Notes: a model not told the origin generated them from the letters alone. Shown: positions 2,482 through 54,878, numbered from the stretch's first letter. The stretch is DNA of 64,000 bases from an uncultured Actinomycetota bacterium (GCA_963781335.1 CAWAFS010000031.1:54059-118058), one strand, 5' to 3'. Program-made: numbers and translations.

Positions 2482-2540
2482 CCTGTTCCGGCAGCGCTAG
2501 GGTCGGGCCCGGGCACGACGAGACCAGGAAGTTGTCGGAG

Positions 2541-5033
2541 ATGAGCGAGCAGGACCAGAGCGAGACCGTGGGCTACGACGTGCACGCCACCGAGGCCAAG
2601 TGGCTGCCGGTGTGGGATGAGCTCGACCCGTTCCGAGCCGACGACGACAGCCCGCGCGAGAAGCGCTACGCGCTGACGATGTTTCCCTACCCGAGCGGTG
2701 ACCTGCACATGGGTCACGCCGAGGTGACCGCGCTCCACGACGTGATCGCGCGCTACTGGTGGCAGCGCGGCTTCGAGGTGCTCAACCCGATCGGGTGGGA
2801 CTCCTTCGGCCTGCCGGCGGAGAACGCAGCGATCCAGCGCAACGAGCACCCGGCGACCTACACCTACGCCAACATCGAGACCCAGGCCGCGTCCTTCCGC
2901 AAGTACGGCATCAGCTTCGACTGGTCGCGTCGGCTGCACACCTCCGACCCGGAGTACTACCGCTGGACGCAGTGGCTGTTCCTGAAGCTGCGGGAGCGGG
3001 GCCTGGCCTACCGCAAGTCCAGCCCGGTGAACTGGTGTCCCAACGACCAGACGGTGCTGGCCAACGAGCAGGTCGTCGACGGTTTCTGCGAGCGATGCGG
3101 GGCCGAGGTGACCAAGCGCGAGCTGACGCAGTGGTACTTCAAGGTGACCGACTACGCCCAGCGGCTGCTCGACGACATGGACGACCTGAACTGGCCCGAG
3201 CGGGTGCTGACGCTGCAGCGCAACTGGATCGGTCGCTCGGAGGGTGCCCACGTCGACTTCGAGGTCACCACCGAAGGCACGGACCAGACCCGGACGATCA
3301 GTGTCTACACCACCCGCCCGGACACGCTGTTCGGCGCGACGTTCATGGTGGTGGCCGCCGACGCGAAGCTGGCCGAGGAGATCGTCTCCTCCGAGCAGCG
3401 GTCGGCCTACGACGACTACCTGAACCAGACCCGGATGGCCTCCGACATCGACCGGCTGACGACCGACCGCCCCAAGACCGGGGTGTTCCTCGGCGCGTGG
3501 GCGGTCAACCCCGTGAACGGGCAGAAGGTGCCGGTGTGGGCGGCGGACTACGTGCTGGCCGACTACGGCACCGGCGCGATCATGGCCGTCCCCGGGCAGG
3601 ACCAGCGCGACTGGGACTTCGCGGAGAAGTTCGAACTCCCGATCGTCCGCACCGTGCAACCGTCCGAGGCCTTCGAGGCCGGCGGCGGCAAGGCGTTCAC
3701 CGGCAACGGCCCGGCCATCAACTCCGCGAACGACACCGTCTCCCTCGACGGCCTGGACATCGACGACGCCAAGCAGACGATCATCGGCTACCTCGAGGAG
3801 CAGGGGAGCGGTCGCGGCGCGGTGAACTACCGGCTGCGTGACTGGCTGCTGTCCCGCCAGCGCTTCTGGGGCTGCCCCATCCCGATAGTGCACTGTCCGG
3901 AGTGCGGCGAGGTGGACGTGCCGGAGGACGAACTGCCGGTCGTACTGCCAGAGCTCAGGGGTGCCGACCTCAAACCGAAGGGTGTCTCACCCCTGGCAGC
4001 GGCCGAGGACTGGGTGAACGTGGACTGCCCGAGGTGTGGCGGACCCGCCAAGCGCGACTCCGACACGATGGACACCTTCGTGGACTCGTCGTGGTACTAC
4101 CTGCGCTACTGCTCACCCCACGACGACACCCAGGCGTTCGACCCCGACAAGGTGAACCTGTGGATGCCGGCCGAGCAGTACGTCGGTGGCGTCGAGCACG
4201 CGGTCCTGCACCTGCTCTACAGCCGGTTCTTCACCAAGGCACTGCACGACATGGGGCTGATCGACTTCGAGGAGCCCTTCTCGGCGCTGTTGAACCAGGG
4301 CGTCGTGATCAACCAGGGCAAGAAGATGAGCAAGTCGCTGGGCAACGGCGTCGACCTCGGTCAGCAGCTCGCGGAGTACGGCGTGGACGCGGTGCGGCTG
4401 ACCCTGGTGTTCGCCGGACCTCCCGAGGACAACATTGACTGGGCCGACATGTCACCCGCCGGCTCGCTGCGATTCCTGCAGCGTGCCTGGCGCCTCTCCG
4501 GCGACGTCACCTCGGCGCCGGGCACCTCGCCGGTCGACGGCGATGTCGCGCTGCGCAGGGTGACCCATCGGACGCTGCGCGAGACCGAGACGCTGCTCGA
4601 CTCGCACCGGTTCAACGTGATGGTCGCCCGGATGATGGAGCTCGTGAACGCCACCCGCAAGGCGATCGACTCAGGGCCAGGTCCCCAGGATCCGGCGGTG
4701 CGGGAGGCGACCGAGGCGGTGGCGATCCTGCTCTCGCTCGTCGCGCCGTACACCGCCGAGGAGATGTGGTTCCGGCTGGGTCACGAGCCCACCGTGGCCC
4801 GGGCGGGCTGGCCCGTGGTCGACGAAGCCCTGCTGGTCGAGGACTCCGTCACCGCGGTCGTGCAGGTGCAGGGGAAGCTTCGGGCCAGGCTGGAGGTCTC
4901 GCCCGACATCAGCGACGCCGACCTCGAGGCGGCGGCCCTGGCCGACGAGTCGGTGCAGCGTGCCCTGGAGGGCCAGCAGGTGCGCAAGGTGATCGTGCGG
5001 GCACCCAAGCTGGTCAACGTCGTCGTCGGCTGA
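2541..5033 (+). CDS. leuS: leucine--tRNA ligase
   Basis: Class I signatures HMGH (GDLHMGH) and KMSKS, CP1 editing region, about 830 aa. ATG at 2541 preferred over the TTG at 2532 used by the track. Confidence 0.97.
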
Positions 5034-5064
5034 TGAGTCGACTTCCCGGGATGCGGAGAATTCA

Positions 5065-5084
5065 TGCCGCGTTCCGCTCGGTCG
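5065..5084 (+). repeat. 20-bp direct repeat TGCCGCGTTCCGCTCGGTCG, left copy
   Basis: Identical 20-mer at 7839..7858. Sits about 30 nt after the leuS stop. Confidence 0.9.
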
Positions 5085-5104
5085 ATGTGCGGACGCGCCC
5101 CGAC

Positions 5105-5494
5105 CTACTCGGTTTCCTGCACGACGCCGGCCGCTACTTGCGCGGCAAGTCGATCCACCCTGACTCGGGCCTCGTCGGCGCCCACTACTTCTTCTTCGAC
5201 GAGAAGCGTCTCGCCGTCCTCGTCGCAACGCCAGACCTCGAGGTACCAGATCGGAGGACCAGAGTGCCGCCGTTCCCCGCGCTCATAGCCCTTCCTGAGT
5301 AAGCGGTTGGCACGCCAGAGCATGAGCCTGGCCAGCCGCCCATCGCCAGCATCAGGCCTGAGCATCGGCCAGTCTGGGGGACCTGGCACCTCTGCGCTGA
5401 TCTGGTTGACCCGTCCGGCAGGGTCGGTTGCCCATCGCACGATCTGCACGTCGTTGGTGAGGTCCTCGCCCTCCGGGAGATCGTCGATATCCAC
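5105..5494 (-). CDS. hypothetical protein (islet)
   Basis: 129-aa ORF. GC3 clearly lower than in core genes. No family recognised. Confidence 0.5.
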   Translation of the reverse strand: MDIDDLPEGEDLTNDVQIVRWATDPAGRVNQISAEVPGPPDWPMLRPDAGDGRLARLMLWRANRLLRKGYERGERRHSGPPIWYLEVWRCDEDGETLLVEEEVVGADEARVRVDRLAAQVAAGVVQETE

Positions 5495-5590
5495 GCAGTC
5501 GATGATGCAGTACCGAAGTTGCTCTTGGTCAGTAAAGCCCGAAGTCCAACGTCCGCTTCTGCCGCCGATCCGCGCTTCCAGTGGGTTTGT

Positions 5591-5938
5591 TCAGTCCGCT
5601 ATCGGCATCGACAGCAGGATCAGGAACAGGCCGCACCAGATCCCGGTCACGAGCCCAAGGGCCGCAACAACCCCCGCCGTTCCGTCCAGCGGGCCGTCCT
5701 CCGGTGCGGGACGCTGCCTAATGGACACAAATCCCAGAGCGCTCAACGCTACAAACGCGAAGGGCGCCACGAAGGTCGCCAAGAAGTCAGCAGCCTCACC
5801 GAGACTGGACCGTATCGGTCCGGCAAGGACGAAGTGGGACCAGAAGGCGAGCAGCAGCACGGCTTGCAAGCAGGTCACAAGAACAACGGCGCGCGCGGGC
5901 CAACCCGAGATAGTCCTCTTGCCGCTCGCTATCGACAC
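5591..5938 (-). CDS. hypothetical membrane protein (islet)
   Basis: 115 aa with three hydrophobic helices (VVLVTCLQAVLLLAFW, FVAPFAFVALSALGFV, AALGLVTGIWCGLFLILL). Confidence 0.5.
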   Translation of the reverse strand: MSIASGKRTISGWPARAVVLVTCLQAVLLLAFWSHFVLAGPIRSSLGEAADFLATFVAPFAFVALSALGFVSIRQRPAPEDGPLDGTAGVVAALGLVTGIWCGLFLILLSMPIAD

Positions 5939-6053
5939 TCTCGAACGATCCCACAGGACTGCGGTGGTCGCTGGCCTATTCGGGCTCGCTGGTGAGCCTC
6001 TTCACCACCCTTTCCCTAACGCACTGACATGCCGCATAGTGCGCGCCTGCGGG

Positions 6054-6371
6054 TCATTCGAGAAGGGGTAGCTCGAGGTCATAGGCCAAGACCACGGCGC
6101 GCCCCAGTTGGGCCTCTTGTTCGGCGCTGAGGTATCCGACGGTGCGACCGAGCTGGTTCACCGGGACGGTGATGACGTTGTCGAGGGCGACCACGCAGTC
6201 GTGATCCAGCCCGTTGCCGGGTCCGACCAGGACCTCGCTGGACAAGCCCTTGATGGTGGTGGTGATGGGAGCGACCGTCACCTTCGTCATCGCAGCCCGC
6301 GCCGCCTCACGGGTCAAGATCAATGCCGGCCGGGTCTCGTCGAGACGCACCACGCAGATCTCGCGCACCAA
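6054..6371 (-). CDS. mazF: type II toxin, MazF/PemK-family endoribonuclease
   Basis: VREICVVRLDETRPALILT...APITTTIKGLSSEV is the typical MazF/PemK layout. TTG (6371) or GTG (6368) start immediately after the antitoxin stop. Confidence 0.8.
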   Translation of the reverse strand: MVREICVVRLDETRPALILTREAARAAMTKVTVAPITTTIKGLSSEVLVGPGNGLDHDCVVALDNVITVPVNQLGRTVGYLSAEQEAQLGRAVVLAYDLELPLLE

Positions 6372-6605
6372 TCAGTCCTCGACCTCGAGGTGGGTGCTGC
6401 TCCAATTCACCAGATCGTCCAGGTCGTCGGCGGGGCCGTGCTCACGCAGGACTTGGGCGTCTTGCTCGGCGGCCTGTCGACGCATTTCCCGCTCCACCGC
6501 GGCCGCGACGAGCGCAGCCCGGCTGGGGGCCAGGCCGGTGGCCACGGTGCGGTCCAGGAAGGCCACCATCTCGTCGGGGAGGCGAACGGCGATCTGAGTG
6601 CTCAT
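6372..6605 (-). CDS. type II antitoxin (ribbon-helix-helix, MazE-like)
   Basis: MSTQIAVRLPDEMVAFLDRTV is an RHH N-terminus, with an acidic C-terminus. Abuts mazF. Start taken at ATG 6605; alternatives are 6614 and 6629. Confidence 0.75.
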   Translation of the reverse strand: MSTQIAVRLPDEMVAFLDRTVATGLAPSRAALVAAAVEREMRRQAAEQDAQVLREHGPADDLDDLVNWSSTHLEVED

Positions 6606-6625
6606 GGGACCCATTGTTACCCGAC

Positions 6626-6644
6626 GCATCCCACTTTGGGATGC
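6626..6644. promoter_or_regulatory. palindrome GCATCCCA-ctt-TGGGATGC upstream of the mazEF operon (candidate operator)
   Basis: Perfect 8-bp arms about 20 nt upstream of the antitoxin start. Confidence 0.4.
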
Positions 6645-6980
6645 GCACTCGCATGCCGCTGATGGTGCCCGGAACTGCCGAGATCCGGTAGACGCTCAGC
6701 GGGGCTATGCACGTGATCTTTCGGACATACCGTGGCCTGTCGTCGACCACGACGCCCGAAGGACGATCAGTTCGAGGTCGCACGCGCGGTGTCCCCGCGC
6801 GCGCGGAACCCTCGCGGCCCGACCTGATCGTCCTTGTGGCGCCGCCCGGCGTCCGCAGCGGCCTTGGAAGGAGGCAGTTCGGGGAAGTGACCCGTCGCTC
6901 AGGCGGGAACAGGCATATGGCTGCCGCGAACTGCCTCCCTCTGATGCGCGGAGCCACGAGAACGGTCGATCGCACGCTTC

Positions 6981-7000
6981 TGCCGCTGTCGGTGCGTAGC
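6981..7000 (+). repeat. 20-bp direct repeat TGCCGCTGTCGGTGCGTAGC, left copy
   Basis: Identical 20-mer at 7550..7569. The pair brackets only the GNAT gene. Confidence 0.9.
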
Positions 7001-7067
7001 TTGCCGATGAGCGGTCGTCGTGGGTGAGCCATTTCAAGACGCTGATGGCCATGGCAAGGTCGTTCGA

Positions 7068-7543
7068 ATGGACGTAGCGATCCGGCCAGTCGAGGCAACC
7101 GACCACGAGGACGTGATGCGCTTGGCACCGCGACTGCTCGTCGGGGTGGACCCTTCCAGGCCGACCGATCTGGTACGCACGGCCATCCAGGACTGGGTGG
7201 ATGAGTCAGTGAAGTCCGCGGGCAGCGACGGCCAGGCCGGATGGGTCGCCGACACGACGGCTCCGTCATCGGGTTCGTCTCTGTGTCAGCAGAGGATCAC
7301 TGGTGCGGAGTGACGGATGCCTGGGTCGGGGAGATGATGGTGGAGGAGCGGTTCGAGAGGAAGGGCGTCGCCCGGTCGCTGATCGGTAAGGCCGAGGAGT
7401 GGGCAGCTCAACGGGGTCTCCGACACATTCGTCTGACGACAGGGGCCGCCAACCACGGAGCACGAGCCTTCTACGAGCGGCTCGGCTACAGACTGAACGA
7501 GGTCACCCTGACAAAGGAACTCCTCACCCAGCCGAGCGCCTGA
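7068..7543 (+). pseudogene. GNAT family N-acetyltransferase, frameshifted
   Basis: N-terminal half in the frame of ORF 7020..7313 (MDVAIRPVEATDHEDV...GQAGWVA). C-terminal half with acetyl-CoA motif (ERFERKGVARSLIGKAEEWAAQRG...FYERLGY) in ORF 7241..7543. Frames join near 7250-7260 if one base is restored. Confidence 0.8.
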
Positions 7544-7549
7544 CGCTCA

Positions 7550-7569
7550 TGCCGCTGTCGGTGCGTAGC
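7550..7569 (+). repeat. 20-bp direct repeat TGCCGCTGTCGGTGCGTAGC, right copy
   Basis: Identical to 6981..7000. Starts 7 nt after the GNAT stop. Confidence 0.9.
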
Positions 7570-7643
7570 GTCCGTCCGCAGATCGCGCGCGGTCCTGCCG
7601 CGAAGAGCGTCGGAGGCGGCGCTCTGGATGTAGCGTCGCAAGC

Positions 7644-7814
7644 ATGACCGCTGGCTCCCTCTTCAATGGCTTTGCGTTGCTCCTCGTCCTACTGATCATC
7701 GCTGGAGTGGCCGGCGGCATTGGATCAGTCGAGTTGCTCATCTGGCTCGCGCTCGTCACAGCCTGGATCGCGTGGTGGATGGTGAGTCGACGCAGGAGCG
7801 ACCCTGCCCCCTGA
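7644..7814 (+). CDS. small membrane protein, 56 aa (below the ORF-track cutoff)
   Basis: Own translation: MTAGSLFNGFALLLVLLIIAGVAGGIGSVELLIWLALVTAWIAWWMVSRRRSDPAP. Two hydrophobic helices plus a basic tail. Confidence 0.35.
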   Translation: MTAGSLFNGFALLLVLLIIAGVAGGIGSVELLIWLALVTAWIAWWMVSRRRSDPAP

Positions 7815-7838
7815 CACGGGCTGGCGAACGTCCGCAAC

Positions 7839-7858
7839 TGCCGCGTTCCGCTCGGTCG
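7839..7858 (+). repeat. 20-bp direct repeat TGCCGCGTTCCGCTCGGTCG, right copy
   Basis: Identical to 5065..5084. Followed directly by TGCCGAGATC, which also occurs at 6676. Confidence 0.9.
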
Positions 7859-7882
7859 TGCCGAGATCAGTGCAGGGGTCTA

Positions 7883-8478
7883 TTACTTCGGGGGTGTTTC
7901 GAGGGCCTGCCTGACGAGGGCGTCGACCATCCATTGTTGGAGGGCGCTGACTTCTGCGGGGGCGAGGCCAGCGACGTCGCTCAGCCAGACGCGGGTCTCG
8001 ATGCCACATGCGGCGCGGAATGCCAGCGCAAGCCGGCGGACGCCCTCTTCGCCGATCGACTCGGCCATTGGCTCGAGCGCCTCGATGAACCACGGAATGG
8101 CGCGGCCCTGGCGGAGCGGCAGCTCGTGCGGCACTTCTCCCAGCGAGAGGCGCAGCATCGCACGTTGCTGCGGCTCATTCTCCTGCACGCGGCTGATGAC
8201 GAACCCGGCAACGGCGGCCACGCGTTCGTCCACGGCTTCCGGCGGCGGGTCGGGAAGGGCGGACGCGGCTCCTGTCTCCGGGTATGCCGCGGCGAGAAGT
8301 CGGCCTGTGAGGTGAAGTAGCGGTAGGCGGTGGGGCGAGAGATCCCGGCAGCCTCCGCGACCTGCTCGACACGGGGGGTGTCGCCCGCGGTGATCAGCTC
8401 GCGCGCCGCAGCGATCAGTTGGTCGCGGGTGCGTTGCTTCTGCCGCGTGCGACCCGACTCGATGTAGTCCGTTGACAT
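7883..8478 (-). pseudogene. TetR/AcrR family transcriptional regulator, frameshifted
   Basis: HTH half (RDQLIAAARELI...VEQVAEAAGISRPTAYRYFTSQ) in ORF 7981..8478. Ligand-domain half (LLAAAYPETG...WMVDALVRQALETPPK) in ORF 7883..8488. Frames join near 8300. Confidence 0.8.
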
Positions 8479-8531
8479 GGTCGTTCATGATATGCCATTC
8501 TCATTACAAGACTCAAGTCTCATGAATGACC
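8479..8531. promoter_or_regulatory. divergent TetR/cupin promoter region with 12-bp inverted repeat (candidate TetR operator)
   Basis: GGTCGTTCATGA (8479..8490) and TCATGAATGACC (8520..8531) match at 11 of 12 positions as an inverted repeat. AT-rich spacer. Confidence 0.45.
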
Positions 8532-8541
8532 GGAGTGTCAG

Positions 8542-9012
8542 ATGACTGAAAGGACGATGCTCGCGCCGGTGATCCGACGAGCAGGCGAGGGCGAGAAGCG
8601 ATGGTTCTTCGGCGGTGGCGTTTTCACCTGGAAGCTCAGCAGTGCTAACGAGGACATCGGCCTGTGGGAGGTCGACATGGTCGAGGGCAAGTGGACCCCG
8701 ATCCACACCCACCCGGTCTCGGAGTCCATGTGGGTGCTCGAGGGGCAAATCCAGTACCGCGTCAACGACGATGAACACGAACTCGGTGCCGGCGACTTCG
8801 TCATGGTGCCCGCAGGCGTACCCCACGCCTTCATCGTCAAGAGTTCCACGGCCAAGGTGCTCGGCATCCAGCCAACATGCGAGTTCGAACCCTTCTACCT
8901 CGGCGCCAGCGAGCCGTTCGAAGGGTCGGCCTGCATCGTCGACTTCGCCAGGATCGCGCAGAGCGCTCAAGAGAACGGCGGCATCGAGATCGTCGGACCC
9001 CCACCCTTCTAG
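8542..9012 (+). CDS. cupin domain protein
   Basis: Cupin motifs PIHTHPVSESMWVLEG and GDFVMVPAGVPHAF. Divergent from the TetR gene. Confidence 0.8.
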   Translation: MTERTMLAPVIRRAGEGEKRWFFGGGVFTWKLSSANEDIGLWEVDMVEGKWTPIHTHPVSESMWVLEGQIQYRVNDDEHELGAGDFVMVPAGVPHAFIVKSSTAKVLGIQPTCEFEPFYLGASEPFEGSACIVDFARIAQSAQENGGIEIVGPPPF

Positions 9013-9171
9013 AGGAGGGCGCACTCACCTGCCGCGTTGGGGACGGCTAAGCTCGCCGGGATCTGCCGCGGCCCACGCGCTCCAAGCAGGCATCGTCGTA
9101 CAACCTTCGACGCCATGACGAGCATTTTCGATGGCTACGTTGCCAGCGGTCGCTGATGGGACACTGCGCAG

Positions 9172-9804
9172 GTGCACCGAATGTCTCGCTCACATGCGCT
9201 CACCACCGTCGCATTCGGTACGCCGGCACTTGCCCTGGCCGTGGCCGGGTTGTTCCACCCGCACCGCCTCGGTTACGACTCGGCGCAGCGCTGGTTCCTT
9301 CTGCACATCGCCGGCCTGGTCGCCTTTCCTCTCGCCGGGGTGGCGCTGACCGCACTCATGGGCCGCCGGCGGGACGTCCTCGCGTGGGCGGCGCGGGTCG
9401 CGGCCTACCTCTATGCGACGTTCTACACCGCGCTGGACGTGGTCAGCGGGATCGCGGCGGGATACCTCACCCGCGAGCTCGGACCGGGCACACCTAGGCC
9501 CGACGAGGTCCGCCTGCTGTTCCGAATCGGCACCCCGCTCGGTGAGATCGGCTCGTGGGCGCTCCTTGTCTGCTGCGCACTCATCGCGGCCGACCAGTTG
9601 CATCGCCACGGGCTGGCCGCCCTTCCCGGGCTGCTGCTCGTGCCGGGTGCCTGGCTGGTGCACGTCGATCACATCTTCGCGCCCACGGGTGCAGCCGGCA
9701 TGGCCCTGATCGGCTTCGCAACGGCCTGGCTGGCTGCGCTCGCGACCAAGCCACCAGCGCGCCTGTCGCCGGACGAGACCACGTGGTCGGGAATCGCGTC
9801 ATAG
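9172..9804 (+). CDS. hypothetical integral membrane protein
   Basis: 210 aa with about six hydrophobic segments. GTG 9172 or ATG 9181 start. Confidence 0.55.
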   Translation: MHRMSRSHALTTVAFGTPALALAVAGLFHPHRLGYDSAQRWFLLHIAGLVAFPLAGVALTALMGRRRDVLAWAARVAAYLYATFYTALDVVSGIAAGYLTRELGPGTPRPDEVRLLFRIGTPLGEIGSWALLVCCALIAADQLHRHGLAALPGLLLVPGAWLVHVDHIFAPTGAAGMALIGFATAWLAALATKPPARLSPDETTWSGIAS

Positions 9805-9840
9805 CAGGGAAGTCGCGAGGCAGGGAAGTCGCGAGGCAGG
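9804..9840. repeat. 16-bp tandem duplication GCAGGGAAGTCGCGAG x2 plus a partial third unit
   Basis: Read directly. Begins at the last base of the stop codon of the 9172..9804 ORF. Confidence 0.85.
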
Positions 9841-9982
9841 CAAGCCTGCACGAACGGGTGACAGGTTGGGTCACGCAGCCTGAGTGGCTGTCCTCGCCGG
9901 TGCCGTGACAGCCCGCGAGTTCCTCCTCACCCACGTGGATCCTGAACTTCCCGAACACCTGCCATCGTGCAGCAAGGGGACG

Positions 9983-11290
9983 TTAGGCGGCGTCGTCGAG
10001 CAGTCGTCTGATCCGTTGCTCGATGCTCATGACGGGTGGGTCGCCAGGCTGTGGGGGAGGGCTGGATCGGTAGCGATGTCCCGTGGGCGTGGTGATCTCG
10101 ACGCGATGTCGGTCGGAGGTGACGAGGTCGGTGCGCCAGCCTGGGGTCTCCTTGATGTAGTTGCAGGATTCGCAGAGGCCCTGGCCGTTCGCGGCGGTCG
10201 TTGGTCCACCGTCGCTGGCTCGGCGGATGTGGTCGACGTGGGCGATGGGGGCGTCGCACCAAGGGGTGCGGCAGGTCTGGTCGCGGAGCACGAGCAGTCG
10301 GCGGAGCGTGCCGCGGAAGGTGCGGCGCTGGCTGTCCATTGCGACGAGCTCGCCAGTGGTGGGGGCGGTGAAGAGCCGGTGGATCCAGGCCCGGTCGGCG
10401 TCGCGGACGATCCGGCGGGCCAGGAACCCCGGGATGGTGCCGTAGCCCGAGACGTAGGCAGGTTCGTGGTCGCCACGGAGCAGCGTGCGCTCGTTCATCA
10501 CGAGCTGGACCTCGACGCCACCGACGGCGGACTGCTGCCCAGTGAGGCGGGTGTAGAAGCTGTCGGCCATGATCTGGCTGAGGGTGCGCGTGTCGCCCTC
10601 CGCGCGCAGAGTCTTGGCGTGCCGGCGCAAGGCGGCGTAGACGGCGACTCCTTGCGCGACTGGCAACAGGCCGGTGACGTTGGTCATCGTGTCGGGTGCA
10701 GGTCGGATGGTGACGCGTCGGTCGGTCTCGGCCTTCTGGTTGCGGCGCAGCGCTGCCCCGGGGTCGAGGCGGTAGGCGATCGTGCGTGCGAGGTCAGCGA
10801 CCCGTCGGTCTCCGGCGCCGACGAGCTGGGGCGCGAGCTCGGCGTCGACCTGCCTCCGGTCCTCGCGGGTCAGGGTCGCGGTCTCGCGAACGATCAGGGT
10901 CGCGCGCCACTCGGAGATCTTGCCGTGCGTCAGTCCCTCGAGGGTGTGCGGCAGGTCGCGGACCAGGCCGAGCGCGAGACCGAGGTGCTGCTGGCCTCGG
11001 GCCGGTGACTCGCGTCGAGCAAGTGCGACCTGGGCGGCGATGCCGCGCGAGACCTCACTTGTCGACTTCAAGGAGGGTGCTGCGTCGCGCTGGGAGCGGT
11101 CGAAGGCCTCGGTGATCCTGGCCTGCGCAGCGGCGGCAGCGGCCTTGAGCGACTCCAGCTCCCCGATCCGGTCGATGCGCTCGCGGTCGCTCAGATCATG
11201 CCCGTCGTGCCGCGCCAGCGACTCGATCCAGGCAGCCGGGTCCACCGGCAAGACGCCGGGGGAGTGGGGTTGCCGCAATGAATCGAACAT
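9983..11290 (-). CDS. DUF222 / HNH endonuclease (13E12-repeat-family-like protein)
   Basis: MFDSLRQ...IGELESLKAAAAAAQARITEAF is a DUF222-type N-terminus. C-terminal HNH region is RDQTCRTPWCDAPIAHVDHIRRASDGGPTTAANGQGLCESCNY. Start set at ATG 11290, because the track ORF extends upstream into ycaQ. Confidence 0.85.
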   Translation of the reverse strand: MFDSLRQPHSPGVLPVDPAAWIESLARHDGHDLSDRERIDRIGELESLKAAAAAAQARITEAFDRSQRDAAPSLKSTSEVSRGIAAQVALARRESPARGQQHLGLALGLVRDLPHTLEGLTHGKISEWRATLIVRETATLTREDRRQVDAELAPQLVGAGDRRVADLARTIAYRLDPGAALRRNQKAETDRRVTIRPAPDTMTNVTGLLPVAQGVAVYAALRRHAKTLRAEGDTRTLSQIMADSFYTRLTGQQSAVGGVEVQLVMNERTLLRGDHEPAYVSGYGTIPGFLARRIVRDADRAWIHRLFTAPTTGELVAMDSQRRTFRGTLRRLLVLRDQTCRTPWCDAPIAHVDHIRRASDGGPTTAANGQGLCESCNYIKETPGWRTDLVTSDRHRVEITTPTGHRYRSSPPPQPGDPPVMSIEQRIRRLLDDAA

Positions 11291-11401
11291 ACGTTCGAGT
11301 CTACCAAACCGGGAGAACACGTCAAGGGGAGGCGGGCAAATCTGTGGATCAATCCGACGAGCGACCTGCCGAGCGCATCGAGGGCCGTCTAACCTGCGTG
11401 G

Positions 11402-12445
11402 GTGCTCACCCTGCGCGACCGGAACCGCACGCTGCTGCGACGGCAACACCTGCTGGAGCGCACCACGATGTCGGCGCTGAGGATGGTCGAGCACCTCGTC
11501 GGCCTGCAGGCGCAGGAGAACCTGCCGCCCTACCTCTCGCTCGCGGCCCGGATCCAGGACTTCGACCCGCTCGAGCTGTCCGGGGCTCTCGAGAGCAAGG
11601 ACGCGGTTCGGTTCCTGACGATGCGAGGCACCATCCACGTGCTCGTACCTGACGATGCGTTGTCGTTGCGACCCTGGGTGCAGCACGCGCTCGACCAGCA
11701 GAGTGCCTCCAACCAGATGAGCCGCCCGGCGAAGTCCGTGCCGGTCGAAGACCTGGTCGCCGCGACCCGACGACTCCTCGAACCGGGTCCGCTGCCCGTC
11801 AAGGCGCTGGGTCAGCTGCTCGGGAAGGACTTCCCCGGCGTACCCGCCGGTGCGCTCGCGCACACGGCGCGTGAGCGGGTGCCGATGGTCCAGGTCCCGC
11901 CTCGAGGGCTGTGGAAGCGGTCTGGCGGCGTCGTCTACCAGACGGTCGAGAACTACCTCGGCCAGTCACAGAGCGAGGTCGACCTGCCCGAGCTCGTGCG
12001 CCGCTACCTGCGGGCGTTCGGACCTGGCACCGCTGCGGACATGACCGCGTGGTCTCGGGTGACCAGGCTCGGCCCGGTCTTCGAGTCGATGAGGGACGAG
12101 CTCGTGGTGGTGGAGTGCGAGGACGGCAGGCGGAGGTACGACGTGCCGGGTGCGCCGTACGCCGAGGGGGACACGCCCGCACCGGTCCGCCTGCTCGGCG
12201 CCTACGACAACGTGTGGCTCTCGCACTCAAGTCGTGAGCACATCGTCCCGCCCGACGTGGGCCCGCGGTGGATGGGCGCGAACGGTGGCGTCGGCAGCAC
12301 GATCTTCGTCGACGGCTTCATGGCCGGCCTGTGGTGGGTCCGCGACGGCCGCATCGTGACCGACGTCTTCAGAAGCCTGTCGACACGCGAGCAGGGCGAG
12401 CTGGACGCCGAGGTTGCCCGCGTCGACGCGCTGCTGTCCGGGTGA
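11402..12445 (+). CDS. winged-helix DNA-binding protein, YcaQ/DUF1006 family (DNA glycosylase-like)
   Basis: LRDRNRTLLRRQHLLERT...VEHLVGLQAQ...MRGTIHVL is the characteristic N-terminal pattern of this family. GTG start. Confidence 0.7.
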   Translation: MLTLRDRNRTLLRRQHLLERTTMSALRMVEHLVGLQAQENLPPYLSLAARIQDFDPLELSGALESKDAVRFLTMRGTIHVLVPDDALSLRPWVQHALDQQSASNQMSRPAKSVPVEDLVAATRRLLEPGPLPVKALGQLLGKDFPGVPAGALAHTARERVPMVQVPPRGLWKRSGGVVYQTVENYLGQSQSEVDLPELVRRYLRAFGPGTAADMTAWSRVTRLGPVFESMRDELVVVECEDGRRRYDVPGAPYAEGDTPAPVRLLGAYDNVWLSHSSREHIVPPDVGPRWMGANGGVGSTIFVDGFMAGLWWVRDGRIVTDVFRSLSTREQGELDAEVARVDALLSG

Positions 12446-12469
12446 ACAACGCGGGGCACCGAGCGACGC

Positions 12470-12506
12470 GTGACTAGTCCAGGAACACCGTTCATCCCCC
12501 CGAAAC
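12470..12506 (+). promoter_or_regulatory. candidate GlnR-type operator (two GTnnC/A-N7-GnAAC units)
   Basis: GTGAC-tagtcca-GGAAC-acc-GTTCA-tcccccc-GAAAC, read directly upstream of the glutamine synthetase gene. Confidence 0.35.
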
Positions 12507-12599
12507 ATGGCCGACATCCCCGGTGCGGAAGCCAATCTAGGTTGGGTGCGTCGATCCTCCACCGCCGCGACCAGCGGCTTCGTTCAAGGGACAACCAAC

Positions 12600-14774
12600 G
12601 TGAGTGGAAACAACGTTCGCCTGCAGGCGATCAAAGATGTCGAGGCCTATGTTCCGCCCGCTGTGAGCTTCGCGCTCACCGAGACGCCCGGCGAGATCTT
12701 CGGTGAGAACGTGTTCAGCAAGACCGTGATGCAGAAGCGGCTCCCGAAGTCGGTCTACAAGTCGGTGCTTGCGACCATCGAGCACGCAGCACCGCTCGAC
12801 CCGGCCATGGCCGATGCGGTCGCCTCGGCGATGAAGGACTGGGCGATGGAGAAGGGCGCCACCCACTACGCCCACGTCTTCTACCCGCTCACCGGCCTGA
12901 CCGCGGAGAAGCACGACAGCTTCCTGGAGCCCGCCGGTGACGGCTCCGCCCTCGCGGAGTTCTCCGGCAAGACCCTGGTCCAGGGTGAGCCCGACGCGTC
13001 CAGCTTCCCGAACGGTGGCCTGCGCAACACCTTCGAGGCCCGCGGCTACACCGGCTGGGACGCGACCAGCCCGGCGTACGTGCTGGAGAACCCGAACGGC
13101 AACACGCTGTGCATCCCCACGGTGTTCGTGTCGATGACCGGCGAGGCGCTGGACCACAAGACGCCGCTTCTGCGGGCCCAGCAGGCGATGGCCGACCACG
13201 CCGAGCGGATCCTGCGGCTGTTCGGGCACGAGCCCGAACGAGTCGTGTCCTACTGCGGTGCGGAGCAGGAGTACTTCCTGATCGACCGCCACTTCTTCCT
13301 CGCCCGGCCTGACCTGCTGAACTCCGGCCGCACGCTCTTCGGGACCAAGCCGCCCAAGGGGCAGGAGTTCGACGACCACTACTTCGGCGCCATTCCCGAG
13401 CGGGTCCTCGGCTTCATGATGGACACTGAGCGAGAGTTGTTCAAGCTGGGGATCCCGGCCAAGACGCGGCACAACGAGGTCGCTCCCGGCCAGTTCGAGA
13501 TCGCGCCGATGTTCGAGCGCGGCAACGTCGCGGCAGATCACCAGCAGCTGCTGATGACGACCTTCAAGACGGTCGCGAAGAAGCACGGCATGGAATGCCT
13601 GTTCCACGAGAAGCCGTTCGAGGGTGTCAACGGCTCGGGCAAGCACGTGAACTTCTCGCTGGGCAACGCCACGGAGGGCAACCTGCTGCTGCCGGGGGAC
13701 AACCCCCACGACAATGCGCAGTTCCTGGTGTTCTGCGCGGCCGTCATCCGAGCCGTGCACAAGTTCGGTGGCCTGCTGCGCGCCTCGGTCGCGTCTGCCT
13801 CCAACGACCACCGTCTCGGCGCCAACGAGGCTCCGCCGGCGATCATCTCGATCTTCCTCGGAGACCAGCTGACCGACGTCTTCGACCAGATCGCGAAGGG
13901 CGGTGCGACGTCCTCGAAGGACAACGGCACCCTGAAGGTCGGCGTGGACACCATTCCGGTCCTGCCGACCGACCCCGGCGACCGCAACCGCACCAGCCCG
14001 TTCGCGTTCACGGGGAACCGGTTCGAGTTCCGTGCGCCGGGCTCGATGCAGACGGTGGCCGGCCCGATGGTCATCCTGAACGCGATCATGGCGGAGGCGC
14101 TCGACCACATCGCCACCAGCCTGGAGACCGCCCGGGCCGACGGGGTCGAGTTCAACACCTCCGTGCAGAACGTCCTGGCGGAGATCATCGACAACCACGG
14201 TGCAGTCGTCTTCAACGGGGACGGGTACTCCGAGGAGTGGCAGCAGCAGGCCGCCTCACGTGGGCTGCCGAACCTCCGCACCACGCTGGACGCGCTGCCG
14301 GAGCTCGTCTCCGAGGAGTCCATGGAGCTGTTCGCGCGCTACCAGATCTTCAACCACCGCGAGATGCACAGCCGCTACGAGATCGGCCTGGAGCACTACA
14401 CCCTGAGCATCGGCGTCGAGGCGCGATCCACGCTCGAGATCGGCACGACCGCCGTGCTGCCGGCCGCGATGCGCTACCAGACCGAGGTAGCGCTCAACCT
14501 GGGTGCTCTCAAGGCCGCCGGGGTCGAGACCGACACGACGTCCCTCGAAGCAGTGTCGGCTCCGCTGGCCGATCTCCGGAGCGCGCTCACGACCCTGGGC
14601 CAGGCTCTGCAGGCCGATGTGGGGTCGACCCCGCTGGCGGAGGCCGAGCACGCGCGCGACGTGCTCCTTCCCGCGATGACCGAAGTGCGTTCCGCCGCTG
14701 ACCTGATCGAGGGAGTTGTGGCCGACGACCTGTGGCCGCTCCCGACCTACCAGGAGATGCTCTACATCCTGTGA
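12600..14774 (+). CDS. glnN: glutamine synthetase, type III
   Basis: About 724 aa from GTG 12600 ([11 protein letters not shown]...). The [24 protein letters not shown]-terminal domain and length fit GS-III. The ATG at 12507 used by the track abuts the putative operator and is less likely. Confidence 0.88.
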
Positions 14775-19912: not shown

Positions 19913-20854
19913 ATGCACAGGCAGGCACAGCAGGAGGTCGCGGCCGCGGCCCGGCGTCGACTCGAGCTGTTGGGCCGCGAGCTCGACCAGGCAGGGCTGA
20001 GACGGGTCGACGAGCTCGACCATGAGCCGAGCCACCGACCCGACCCGGACGGTCCGGACACGCGCCTGCCGGACCCTGCCACCGTCGCTCCGGTCGGCCG
20101 GCACCTGCGCGAGGCACGACCTGGACCTGCGCGCCGTCTGGGTGGCCGTCTGGGTGGCTGGCTGGGTGATCGGGTGCCGGAGACCTTGCGGGGCCGCGCC
20201 GGGCTCGACCCCGGACCGGTGCTGCTGGTCGTGGCGCTGGTGGCGTTGGCTGTGACCGCGACCGCATTCGTGGTGCTGCGGATGGGGGGTGACGCCGAGA
20301 CTGTTCCCCGGAGCCCCGCGCTGCAGACCCGCTCCGGCTCCCCGTCCCCGCTGGTCCCGTCCCCGCTGGTCCCGTCGGCAGCGACAACGGCTGCCTCGGC
20401 AGCCGTCCCGGGGAGCGCTCAGGGGAGCGTCACCGTCGACGTCGCGGGGAAGGTACGCCGGCCCGGTGTTGCCACCCTGCCGGCCGGGTCCCGGGTCGTC
20501 GACGCCCTGAAGCGGGCCGGTGGTGCTCGAGGGCGAGTGGACCTCAGCACGCTGAACCTGGCACGCGTCCTGGTCGACGGTGAACAGATCCTGGTCGGCC
20601 GACCAGCCGCACCAGGCGGCCTGGCCGCCAGCGCGAGCACCGCCGCTCCCGACGCGACAGGAGCCTTGGTCAACCTCAACACCGCCACGTCCGACCAGCT
20701 CGACACCCTGCCGGGGGTGGGGCCGGTCACTGCCCAGAAGATCCTCGACTGGCGCACCGCCAACGGCGCCTTCTCCTCGGTCGACGAGCTGCTGGAGGTC
20801 GACGGCATCGGGGAGAAGACGCTTGCGGAGCTGGCGCCGCACGTCACGCTGTGA
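19913..20854 (+). CDS. comEA: ComEA family DNA-binding protein
   Basis: SLBB-like region (VTVDVAGKVRRPGVATLPAGSRVVDAL) and helix-hairpin-helix (LNTATSDQLDTLPGVGPVTAQKILDWR). Start at ATG 19913. Confidence 0.88.
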   Translation: MHRQAQQEVAAAARRRLELLGRELDQAGLRRVDELDHEPSHRPDPDGPDTRLPDPATVAPVGRHLREARPGPARRLGGRLGGWLGDRVPETLRGRAGLDPGPVLLVVALVALAVTATAFVVLRMGGDAETVPRSPALQTRSGSPSPLVPSPLVPSAATTAASAAVPGSAQGSVTVDVAGKVRRPGVATLPAGSRVVDALKRAGGARGRVDLSTLNLARVLVDGEQILVGRPAAPGGLAASASTAAPDATGALVNLNTATSDQLDTLPGVGPVTAQKILDWRTANGAFSSVDELLEVDGIGEKTLAELAPHVTL

Positions 20855-52631: not shown

Positions 52632-52739
52632 GGCCGTGGAATGCGTTCAGCGAACCCGGATGCGCCGTGACGGGCGCCTGCGTAGCATTGACCTGCCAGC
52701 ACACCCCCCAACGAAGGGCCGCCCCGCACCGGGGCATCC

Positions 52740-54878
52740 ATGACTGAGACCAGCAAGGCCGGCGCCGTCGGCAACAGCACCCGATCCAACGACGGGACCG
52801 CCCGGCAGACCCAGCACACGGTGGTCGTGCCCAGCAGCATCAACATGGTCTCCCTGCTCGGCCCTGGCGACGAGCACCTGACCCTCCTGGAGAGGGCCTT
52901 CGACGCGGACCTGCACGTCCGGGGGAACCAGATCACCCTGCGCGGTGAACCCGCCGAGATCGCCCTGGCGGAGCGCATGCTCGACGAGCTCGTGACGATC
53001 ATCCGCACCGGTCAGGGGATGACCGCCGAGACCGTGGAGCGCGTGATCACGATGCTGCGCGCGGAGACCACCGAGCGTCCCGCCGACGTGCTGTCGCTGA
53101 ACATCCTGTCCAACCGTGGCCGCACGATCCGGCCCAAGACGCTGAACCAGAAGCGTTACGTGGACGCCATCGACAAGCACACGGTGGTGTTCGGCATCGG
53201 TCCCGCAGGCACCGGCAAGACCTATCTCGCGATGGCCAAGGCGGTGCAGGCGCTGCAGGCGAAGAAGGTCAACCGGATCATCCTGACCCGTCCCGCCGTC
53301 GAGGCGGGCGAGCGCCTCGGGTTCCTCCCGGGGACGCTGAGCGAGAAGATCGACCCCTACCTGCGGCCGCTCTACGACGCCCTGCACGACATGCTCGACC
53401 CGGAGACCGTGCCGAAGCTGCTCGCGGCCGGGACGATCGAGGTGGCGCCGCTGGCCTACATGCGGGGCCGCGCCCAGCCCTACGACGCGCAGGTCCTCAC
53501 CCCTGCGGGCTTCCGACCCATCGGCTCCCTCGAGATCGGTGACCTGGTCATCGGGAGTGATGGCGGGCCCACACCTGTGCTTGGGGTCTACCCGCAGGGA
53601 GAGCGGGAGGTCTACCGCGTCACGACCACCGACGGCGGATCCACGCTGTGCTGTGGTGAGCACCTCTGGCAGGTTTCGACCCCCGAGGACAAGCGCCGCC
53701 TCCGGACCAGGGTGGTCGAGACCCGCGAGATGATCGGTAACCTACGGCGAGGGAACATCCACCGCTACGAGCTGCCGGTGATGTCCGGCACCAACCCCGA
53801 CCAGCAGCCAGTCCCGCTGGACCCCTACGCCTTGGGCCTGCTCCTCGGTGATGGCTGCATCACCACATCGACCACACCGGCGTTCTCGACAGCCGATCCC
53901 GAGCTCGTCGGACGCTTGGGGGTCGCGCTCGACGACCTCGGGGTGGACGTCACCCACAGCGCGGGCTACGACTACGTACTTCGAAGGCGCGGCGGTGGTC
54001 GTGGCGGGGTGATCGTCGCGAACCCGGTCACTGAGGTGCTTCGTGCGCTTCGGCTGGCCGGCACTCGGTCCGCCACCAAGTTCATCCCGGAGATCTACCT
54101 CGAGAACTCCTTCGAGGTGCGGCTCGCCCTGCTCCAGGGCCTGCTCGACACCGACGGTGGACCGGTCACGCAAGCAGGCCGCACGTGCCGCGTGCAATAC
54201 GTCACCACGTCACCGCGGTTGCGCGACGACGTGAGGTTCCTGACCCGCTCACTGGGCGGGATCGCGACCACCCGCACCCGGAAGGCCGAGGGCCGCACGC
54301 CGGGGAGGGCGAACGGGCGACCCGTCGGCTACGTCCACGACGCATACGTGCTGGACATTCGGCTACCCCCCGGCGTGCAGCCCTTCCGGCTGACGCGCAA
54401 GCGAGACAAGTACGAGGCCCTCACCGGGGGCCGCCCGATGCGCTATGTCGAGAGCATCGAGCCCGCTGGAGTCCAGGACACGATGTGCATCCAGGTTGCC
54501 GCCGAGGACTCGCTGTACGTGACCGACGACTTCCTGGTCACGCACAACACCCTCAACGACGCGTTCATCATCCTCGACGAGGCACAGAACACCTCGCCCG
54601 AACAGATGAAGATGTTCCTGACCCGCCTGGGCTTCGGCTCCAAGATCGTGGTCACCGGTGACGTGACCCAGGTGGACCTGCCGTCGGGGATCAAGAGTGG
54701 ACTGCGCGTGGTCGAGGGGATCCTCGGCGGCATCCAGGACGTCTCGTTCAACCGGCTCACCGCTCACGACGTGGTGCGGCACCGGTTGGTCGGCGAGATC
54801 GTCGCGGCATACGAGGCACACGACGCGGAGAACCACGACCCGCGACGCGAAGCGCGTTCCGATCGCGACCGCCGATGA
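52740..54878 (+). CDS. phoH: PhoH-like ATPase interrupted by an intein
   Basis: Walker A GPAGTGKT. The conserved segment ...APLAYMRGR / [15 protein letters not shown] is split by 359 aa. Exteins sum to 353 aa, the normal PhoH size. Confidence 0.92.
53472..54548 (+). mobile_element. intein (Ala1, Trp/Cys/Thr class-3 signature) with LAGLIDADG homing endonuclease domain
   Basis: Block [21 protein letters not shown]. Block [19 protein letters not shown] motifs [10 protein letters not shown] and [11 protein letters not shown]. Block F/G DTMCIQV...FLVTHN followed by +1 Thr. Confidence 0.85.

Follow-up and report, generated by a model that had tools for sequence, protein, structure and literature searches.

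A probable integron-like cassette array between leuS and alkZ in an uncultured Actinomycetota bacterium

What is a perfect 20-bp direct repeat doing immediately downstream of a housekeeping gene? The question is raised by a 64,000-nt stretch of DNA from an uncultured Actinomycetota bacterium (GCA_963781335.1, CAWAFS010000031.1:54059-118058; hereafter the window), where the sequence TGCCGCGTTCCGCTCGGTCG stands close behind leuS, the gene of leucyl-tRNA synthetase, and recurs further on. A first-pass annotation took the two copies for an attL/attR pair, or for a target duplicated upon insertion, bracketing one multi-gene block of 2.75 kb. The analysis described here places them instead in a larger family of short boundary sites, and the strain-variable region 5061-9035 between leuS and alkZ is, in our judgement, probably an integron-like array of cassettes, assembled through site-specific recombination at cores of the form TGCCG(C/A).

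The repeat itself is just as it had been described. The two copies (5065-5084 and 7839-7858) are identical and both on the + strand, the first starts 31 nt past the leuS stop codon (5031-5033), and all the genes listed between them are present: two hypotheticals of 129 and 115 amino acids (aa), a PemK/MazF toxin with a ribbon-helix-helix (RHH) antitoxin, a GNAT acetyltransferase, and an open reading frame (ORF) of 56 aa. The non-coding DNA in the bracketed block comes to ~330 nt, where about 400 bp had been given. It was also right to hold that such a match does not arise by chance, as the shuffle controls give no comparable repeat. TGCCGCGTTCCGCTCGGTCG has two matches in the window and none further with up to three mismatches; 100 shuffles put the expectation at 0.09, none of them reaching two, and the five exact direct repeats of at least 20 nt in the window compare with 0 in 30 first-order Markov shuffles. 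What had been missed was a second perfect 20-mer pair, six further sites of the same family, and frameshifts in the GNAT and TetR genes.

The second pair, TGCCGCTGTCGGTGCGTAGC, lies inside the first and brackets the GNAT gene. In all, eight sites (s1-s8; Table 1) carry the core TGCCGC, all of them on the + strand and one at each cassette boundary, independent of gene orientation: under the same-facing sites, transcription runs leftwards in the first three cassettes, antisense to leuS and to the later ones, and rightwards in the others. A site opens with a conserved left arm of ~12 nt (ACGYMCGCNYM); next comes the core, and last a right part that varies from site to site but often contains GTGYGCG. 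The consensus of 22 aligned sites, taken from the window and from other contigs, is a.CG.cCGCttc-TGCCGC-tGac.G.GcG. At 14-16 nt past the first core, s4, s5 and s7 have another one, TGCCGA, where s1 shows a degenerate TGTGCGGA. The stretches of 14-29 nt between close cores are referred to here as mini-units A (GTTCCGCTCGGTCG), B (beginning TGTCGGTGCGTAGC) and C (beginning ATAGTGTGCGCG). In these terms, TGCCGCGTTCCGCTCGGTCG is the core TGCCGC plus the 14-nt mini-unit A, placed before the h129 cassette and again before the TetR-cupin cassette.

The hexamer TGCCGC alone is common at high G+C, with 111 copies in the window, and this base composition is what speaks for the view that the sites are a chance similarity or an artefact of assembly. 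A matrix made from the eight window sites, however, finds nothing else in the 64 kb, and six weak, scattered matches in the 1.56 Mb around leuS from 80 related species. An independent matrix was trained solely on 15 sites (left arm plus core) from the metagenomic contigs L101, L104, L086 and L096; by this matrix, seven sites of the array are the seven best matches of the window, all on the + strand, and six of them reach at least 15.6 bits within 4 kb. The relatives hold 16 matches of at least 15 bits per 1.56 Mb, none of them clustered, and therefore ~0.04 would be expected per 4 kb. The sole site that fails the left-arm matrix is s1, as expected for the first junction of an array, because its left arm is the leuS flank. 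The ~55 other intergenic regions of the window are all without a site, and no repeat array like this one lies downstream of leuS in the relatives. Since the shuffle controls, the externally trained matrix and two independent Illumina-based contigs with the window arrangement (L081 and L082) all speak against it, we regard the probability of chance or artefact as negligible.

The cassettes are found in other surroundings as well, and their edges there coincide with the sites. The protein h129 belongs to no known family: it has 12 homologues in 5.8 billion proteins, all metagenomic, no match in Pfam, NCBIfam or PADLOC, and an AlphaFold model (pLDDT 85) with no fold match in the PDB at E<0.1. By blastn, its cassette matches L101 over 5085-5555 (82%) and L102 over 5083-5574 (77%); the homology starts at the first base after the 20-mer and takes in the left arm and core of s2. 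The four cassettes in the window, L101, L102 and L104 each have different neighbours. In L101, where h129 is 81% identical in aa, the array reads site, h129, decayed site, a 171-aa gene, site, a Cys-rich CPCC protein, site, a 99-aa membrane protein, site, and in L104 h129 stands beside an aminoglycoside nucleotidyltransferase cassette. Two further homologues, in L100 (52% identity) and L103, lie in ordinary contexts free of sites.

The TetR-cupin cassette also recurs. Its whole length matches 9318-10490 of the 30-kb soil contig L342 (93.5%) and 9320-10495 of L341 (91.7%), the flanks being unrelated in all three, and the match extends from the TGCCGA that follows the second TGCCGCGTTCCGCTCGGTCG copy to the last base of the s8 core. 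The window, L341 and L342 look like soil long-read assemblies of one kind. More diverged copies, from the metagenomes X2 and X4, have the same ending of an arm plus TGCCGC, with different DNA thereafter in each. Likewise, diverged mazEF copies in X1, X2 and X3 all start at 6041, and upstream of them stand three different sites, ending in TGCCGATGTCG, GGCCGCTGTCG and TGCCGCTGCCG, all of the form TGCCG(C/A)N4-5. The non-coding cassette is matched by an X1 unitig over exactly 6676-6986, with 19 different letters on its left. It folds as RNA with z ~-3.3 on both strands, has two long hairpins (6750-6844 and 6867-6941) and no Rfam match, and its stretch 6676-6975 could be a MITE-like element or a small RNA. 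As an observation apart, 6743-6780 of this cassette occurs in several other contexts in X3.

The sites also travel without a gene. In X2 the s6 module (7543-7574) has unrelated sequences on either side, and the 37-nt s7 module that holds TGCCGCGTTCCGCTCGGTCG (7828-7864) is embedded in X4 in DNA that is unrelated on both sides. The unit B 20-mer TGCCGCTGTCGGTGCGTAGC is found in 17 metagenome contigs, of which at least two (the low-GC L084 and L088) look like chance; it sits within small-gene arrays in L086 and L096, and in L093 a 29-nt unit that contains it is repeated in tandem. Both 20-mers gave 0 matches in IMG/VR, where two degenerate site patterns of 15-17 nt gave chance single matches and no clusters. 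Among the PLSDB plasmids, the site sequences had no meaningful matches, and the region matched just with a mazEF-like stretch in Rhodococcus.

Table 1. Sites, cassettes and flanking genes of the leuS-alkZ region (window coordinates)
Feature	Position	Strand	Description
leuS (leucyl-tRNA synthetase)	2532-5033	+	833-aa ORF; conserved left anchor
Site s1	5061-5084, core 5065-5070	+	Core plus mini-unit A GTTCCGCTCGGTCG; left arm is chromosomal leuS flank
h129 cassette (gene 5105-5494, 129 aa)	5085-5574	-	No known family; ends in s2
Site s2	Left arm 5548-5559, core 5560-5565	+	Right end of h129 cassette
tm115 cassette (115-aa membrane protein 5591-5938)	5575-6035	-	ORF and hydrophobic sequence; ends in s3
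Site s3	Core 6030-6035	+	Right end of tm115 cassette; 17.5 bits with externally trained matrix
mazEF cassette (PemK/MazF toxin 6054-6371, RHH antitoxin 6372-6629)	6036-6659	-	PF02452, E=3.9e-11; YlcI/YnfO-type N-terminus; ends in s4
Site s4	Core 6654-6659, second core TGCCGA 6676-6681	+	Right end of mazEF cassette
Non-coding structured cassette	6676-6986	.	From TGCCGA of s4 to s5 core
Site s5	6981-7000, core 6981-6986, then TGCCGA 7002-7007	+	Core plus mini-unit B (TGCCGCTGTCGGTGCGTAGC)
GNAT cassette (frameshifted acetyltransferase, 7020-7313 and 7241-7543)	7002-7555	+	PF00583, E=1e-18 on C-terminal frame; ends in s6
Site s6	Core 7550-7555, 20-mer 7550-7569	+	Right end of GNAT cassette; second copy of TGCCGCTGTCGGTGCGTAGC
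tm56 cassette (56-aa membrane peptide 7644-7814)	7556-7844	+	ORF; ends in s7 left arm and core
Site s7	7827-7864: left arm AACGTCCGCAAC, core 7839-7844, mini-unit A 7845-7858, second core TGCCGA 7859-7864	+	18.7 bits
TetR-cupin cassette (TetR 7883-8478, -, frameshifted; cupin 8542-9012, +)	7859-9035	.	Pfam; ends in s8
Site s8	Left arm 9018-9029, core 9030-9035	+	Right end of TetR-cupin cassette
tm210 (210-aa membrane protein)	9172-9804	+	In island, outside sited array
DUF222 + HNH endonuclease gene, REP13E12 type	9983-11329	-	PF02720 and PF01844
alkZ-like DNA glycosylase gene	11402-12445	+	PF06224, E=2e-65; conserved right anchor

The cargo thus tabulated is of a kind usual in cassette arrays: a toxin-antitoxin pair, a GNAT enzyme, small membrane proteins and a regulator-enzyme pair, to which L104 adds its aminoglycoside nucleotidyltransferase. 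The frameshift in the GNAT gene is also present in an Illumina-based X1 contig, which aligns with 0 gaps. That in TetR may reflect an error of the long-read assembly or mark a true pseudogene, since one additional base follows 8299 in the diverged X1 and X2 copies. Exact-protein look-ups of the cupin, AlkZ and MazF found none of the three on record.

Strains that live together differ in this array. Of the words of 4900-9300, 72% are present in the soil metagenome X1. Its unitig identical to the leuS 3' end (depth 10.8) ends at 5060 and branches at 5060/5061, one path leading into the window's array (depth 6.0) and the other into CCTGGGGAGATCTCGG and beyond. At the far side, the tm210 flank (depth 10.4) is reached either from the cupin cassette or from a variant contig (depth 5.5; also in X2), where one unit B links a mazE cassette of 90% identity to core 9030 and the identical tm210 flank. 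The paths diverge at both ends, and therefore at least two array variants with identical leuS and tm210 flanks occur in one soil; the part that varies between these co-occurring strains is 5061 to core 9030. The X1 strain has, in addition, one extra 34-nt unit at the s5 core, which consists of TGCCGC and ATAGTGTGCGCGGGAGCGCGAGCGGATC.

These findings bear directly on whether the two TGCCGCGTTCCGCTCGGTCG copies are the ends, attL/attR or a 20-bp target duplication, of a single 2.75-kb integrative element. The perfect 20/20 direct repeat, with its first copy 31 nt past a housekeeping gene, is what such an element would leave behind. Yet the family has eight members, six of them inside and beyond the block and two of these forming the nested second pair; the block is made of six separate cassettes, and the array continues past it to 9035. 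The h129 and TetR-cupin cassettes, which flank the 20-mer, move independently of each other. The DNA that varies between strains is 5061-9035, and that between species 5034-11385, so that the 20-mers are not the ends of the variable region: polymorphism starts at 5060/5061 and ends at core 9030. No integrase is present in the block or in the whole window, and the site module is found elsewhere. A joint from 5084 to 7859, as left by excision or deletion, was not seen in the contigs of four metagenomes, which drop rare variants. The suggestion that relatives would show an empty site with one copy of the 20-mer after leuS was not borne out: in L006, L007, L013 and L072, which are other species with ~86% LeuS identity, leuS directly precedes alkZ, with no 20-mer and no site. 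A single element is accordingly very improbable in our view. What survives of the initial interpretation is its more general part, namely that a boundary site of the recombination type lies beside a housekeeping gene and that the DNA between the copies is foreign and strain-variable; the reading of the copies as the attL/attR pair, or the duplicated target, of a single 2.75-kb element does not.

Between species, the variable interval is wider than the array. The window LeuS is 73-91% identical to those of 80 Nocardioidaceae species, and this protein places the window in Marmoricola/Nocardioidaceae. DNA homology with the relatives ends at the leuS stop codon (5033) and resumes at ~11385, which defines the whole island as 5034-11385. 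It is made up of the sited array, which starts 28-31 nt past the leuS stop codon and has direct sites throughout, the tm210 gene, and a gene for a DUF222-HNH endonuclease. Across the array, G+C is lower both overall and at third codon positions. A scan of 4900-11500 for promoters gave two consensus-like sites, both on the - strand (8516-8487 and 11325-11298) and neither of them upstream of the array, and Rfam had no match in 4900-12000 at E<=1. No tm210 homologue was found downstream of leuS in the 80 relatives. Just past the tm210 stop codon there is a perfect tandem repeat of a 16-nt unit (9804-9840).

The DUF222-HNH gene is an older insertion next to alkZ. It has its own near-consensus promoter, TTGACG-16-TAGACT, at 11325-11298, and an orthologue at the same place in L014 alone (81% DNA identity; shared stretch 9984-11246). 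Read by eye, the leuS-alkZ gap also shows a stretch similar to this promoter in L001 and an HNH-like coding sequence in L012; given the L014 insertion and these apparent traces, the gap would be a recurrent landing place for the family. A nuclease inside the island invites the thought that it, or a relative, cuts the TGCCG sites, with the cassettes re-ligated or copied by break repair in a homing-like manner. The recurrence of the gene in this gap would fit such a role, as would L103, where the h129 homologue stands beside what reads by eye as a DUF222-like C-terminus, though tblastn did not detect it. However, L014 has the orthologous nuclease and no sited array, no DUF222-HNH gene is seen with the arrays of L086, L096, L101 and L104, and no DUF222-HNH target is known from experiment. 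Co-occurrence of array and nuclease gene is moreover expected by chance, because the family is multi-copy in actinobacteria. We therefore consider capture by an endonuclease quite unlikely.

Two other features of the leuS-alkZ gap are worth mentioning. A TGCCGC upstream of alkZ in L006, L007 and L009 was considered as an empty att site and rejected, as it is inside a conserved TANNNT -10 box with a leaderless GTG start. In L009, a single gene (12490-13160; putatively isochorismatase-like) stands between leuS and alkZ, flanked by CCTAGGCTG and CCAGGCTG; it is another small insertion at this hotspot and apparently uses the alkZ promoter region.

How, then, would an array of this kind be built? 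Under the explanation that we favour, recombination at the cores, a cassette would extend from one core to the next and carry its own left arm and core at its right end, while mini-units A, B and C would behave as empty cassettes. A recombinase encoded elsewhere in the genome would exchange strands at some position in or beside the TGCCG core, and cassettes could in this way be excised, presumably as circular intermediates, inserted and reshuffled as they are in an integron. This explanation is favoured because serial site-specific recombination produces arrays of just this anatomy: sites that have a short core in common and arms specific to the cassette, all oriented alike, and cassettes and empty units that are portable. 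The site family, its confinement to the array, the breaks at the cores and the differences between strains are observed, while the enzyme, the circular intermediates and the precise cut positions are inferred.

Several results weigh against it. Pfam scans of ~50 ORFs found no recombinase or transposase in the 64-kb window (no PF00589), nor is there one beside the arrays in the short metagenomic contigs, and neither a circular cassette nor an excision joint was seen among the assembled contigs. Some breakpoints are at the core and others 14-20 nt after it, so the cut position is resolved to ~20 nt. The eight sites fold as single-stranded DNA with z from -1.3 to +2.2, without a stable hairpin or an attC-like signal, and the 22-site alignment has no clear dyad symmetry and no visible inverted core boxes; with no convincing dyad and no stable hairpin, the sites do not fit the usual core-site layout of tyrosine or serine recombinases. 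Unit B, as TGCCGCTGTCGGTGCGTAGC, is also found in an ordinary convergent LuxR-type/EamA intergenic region (10 contigs). Finally, the shared arms of 18-37 nt could be enough for short-homology exchange without a dedicated enzyme.

Much of this would suit a dispersed intergenic repeat, of the REP/BIME or MITE type, whose copies give rise to cassette differences through homologous or slipped recombination, with no dedicated recombinase involved. Unit B between the LuxR-type and EamA genes and the tandem in L093 are what one would expect of such a repeat, as is the lack of a recombinase nearby, and the perfect 20-mers and the 37-nt module provide identity enough for short-homology exchange. On the other hand, the window has a site in 0 of its ~55 other intergenic regions, and no cluster lies in the 1.56 Mb from 80 species. 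All sites of an array face the same way whatever the direction of the genes, and the hairpin typical of REPs was not found. Breakpoints fall at the 5-6-nt core even where the arms differ, as for mazEF and TetR-cupin, and the repeat leaves without account why every cassette has a site. We hold this alternative to be unlikely, and continue with recombination at the cores as the preferred explanation.

Where might the recombinase be? One contig offers a weak lead, with the one integrase that was seen next to a core. In L342, a module (10491-14417) of a tyrosine integrase (13119-14240), a helix-turn-helix protein, a 153-aa protein and a 591-aa Cys-rich protein starts 1 nt after the TGCCGC core that closes the TetR-cupin cassette. 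The module has no matching core at its far end and no relatives in IMG/VR. Its core of integrase, helix-turn-helix protein and large protein is common on Streptomyces, Rhodococcus and Arthrobacter plasmids (integrase identity 50-55%), and these plasmid homologues are without sites.

The same contig has a second, unrelated family of boundary sites. ttGCCGGCGGAGTCGGATGATCGAACTGACGG occurs there at 438, 1676, 2448, 3142, 3988 and 7532 (all +), separating PemK, FitA/PIN, ParE/RHH and PIN cassettes, and the first base of this toxin-antitoxin array directly adjoins a RibD_C stop codon; the window has no member of the family. That this second family (GCCGGCGGAGTCGGATGATCGAACTGACGG) organises an array hints that such systems may be diverse in Actinomycetota, a phylum believed to be without integrons. 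Insertion sequence (IS) elements or their remnants lie ~25-235 nt from boundary sites in three independent contigs, namely L102 (IS3-family), L341 (8879-9304, read by eye as what looks like an IS30-type transposase remnant) and L342 (7712-9082, DDE_Tnp_1); either the boundary sites attract IS elements or this is coincidence.

Two observations elsewhere in the window may be recorded here. A PhoH-like ATPase of 728 aa (52692-54878) has a LAGLIDADG_3 homing-endonuclease domain (aa 475-535) between two PhoH stretches, which probably marks an intein, and a perfect tandem repeat of a 15-nt unit is found near 20341 (20341-20376).

More broadly, and tentatively, we propose that soil Nocardioidaceae may carry an integron-analogous cassette system that evolved independently, with sequence-defined sites of ~35-45 nt around a TGCCG(C/A) core, cassettes that can point either way, mini-cassettes that are empty, and a recombinase acting in trans. 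The textbook means by which single-gene cassettes are captured and shuffled is the integron, and an array with a different, sequence-defined site would be a second, independent solution. If so, it would be at work in a phylum with many antibiotic producers and resistance genes, and one sister array does have an aminoglycoside nucleotidyltransferase. The site matrix would also be a search key for more arrays and, by co-occurrence, for the recombinase, which could become a tool for high-G+C hosts. Should the sites prove to be a dispersed repeat on which general recombination acts, the locus would still be a clean example of a strain-variable hotspot between leuS and alkZ.

Literature searches on integron-like arrays in Actinobacteria and on DUF222-HNH turned up no description of this arrangement, and there are several known systems with which it can be compared. 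Like REP/BIME repeats, the sites are short, confined to intergenic DNA and sometimes in tandem. REPs, however, are palindromic, number hundreds per genome, go with RAYT transposases and are not tied to variable cassettes, whereas the window sites form no hairpins, occur nowhere else in the window and share one orientation. The pdif modules of Acinetobacter plasmids are closer in content, being small gene modules, toxin-antitoxin pairs included, that are bounded by short sites and occur in varying contexts. They rely on the host recombinase XerC/XerD, encoded elsewhere, and are flanked in inverted orientation by 28-bp palindromic sites of 11-6-11 layout; the window sites, in contrast, are direct, G+C-rich and without dyad symmetry.

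Other systems resemble the array in where it stands. In the tandems of cis-mobilizable elements (CIME) and integrative and conjugative elements (ICE) of streptococci, and in the cargo arrays of Prochlorococcus tycheposons, direct att-like sites separate the cargo of a hypervariable island anchored to a conserved gene. Their satellite modules lack an integrase, and each att repeat reproduces the end, on the 3' side, of the gene or tRNA that serves as target. The window core, on the contrary, is not part of leuS and has no copy in the empty-site relatives, and its modules are much smaller. The SCCmec islands at the rlmH 3' end are likewise tandem elements just downstream of a housekeeping gene with short direct repeats as bounds. 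SCCmec composites use Ccr serine recombinases, many of their units depending on a recombinase in trans, and the elements measure 3-60 kb. The units in the window differ in being single-gene cassettes of 0.3-1.2 kb, with an unrelated repeat and no ccr-like gene.

Integrons remain the most instructive comparison. Clusters of attC sites lacking an integrase are known as CALINs (PMC4889954), and complete integrons were not found in Actinobacteria in the same survey (PMC4889954). An attC site is an imperfect palindrome with R''-L''...L'-R' boxes (RYYYAAC/GTTRRRY), which as a single strand folds into a hairpin. The array differs from an integron in its sites, which are of 30-45 nt and defined by sequence, with no attC hairpin and no inverted RYYYAAC/GTTRRRY cores, in its genes, which point both ways, and in having no IntI tyrosine recombinase, no attI and no Pc promoter to drive promoterless cassettes. 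It is not, therefore, a CALIN, but this integron array without an integrase is functionally the closest system that we can name. In both, the cassettes are small and mostly of a single gene, and each has at one end a site of its own, the short core of which is common to all while the rest varies; the array has no integrase next to it, the sites keep to one orientation, and the same cassette turns up in different arrays with different neighbours.

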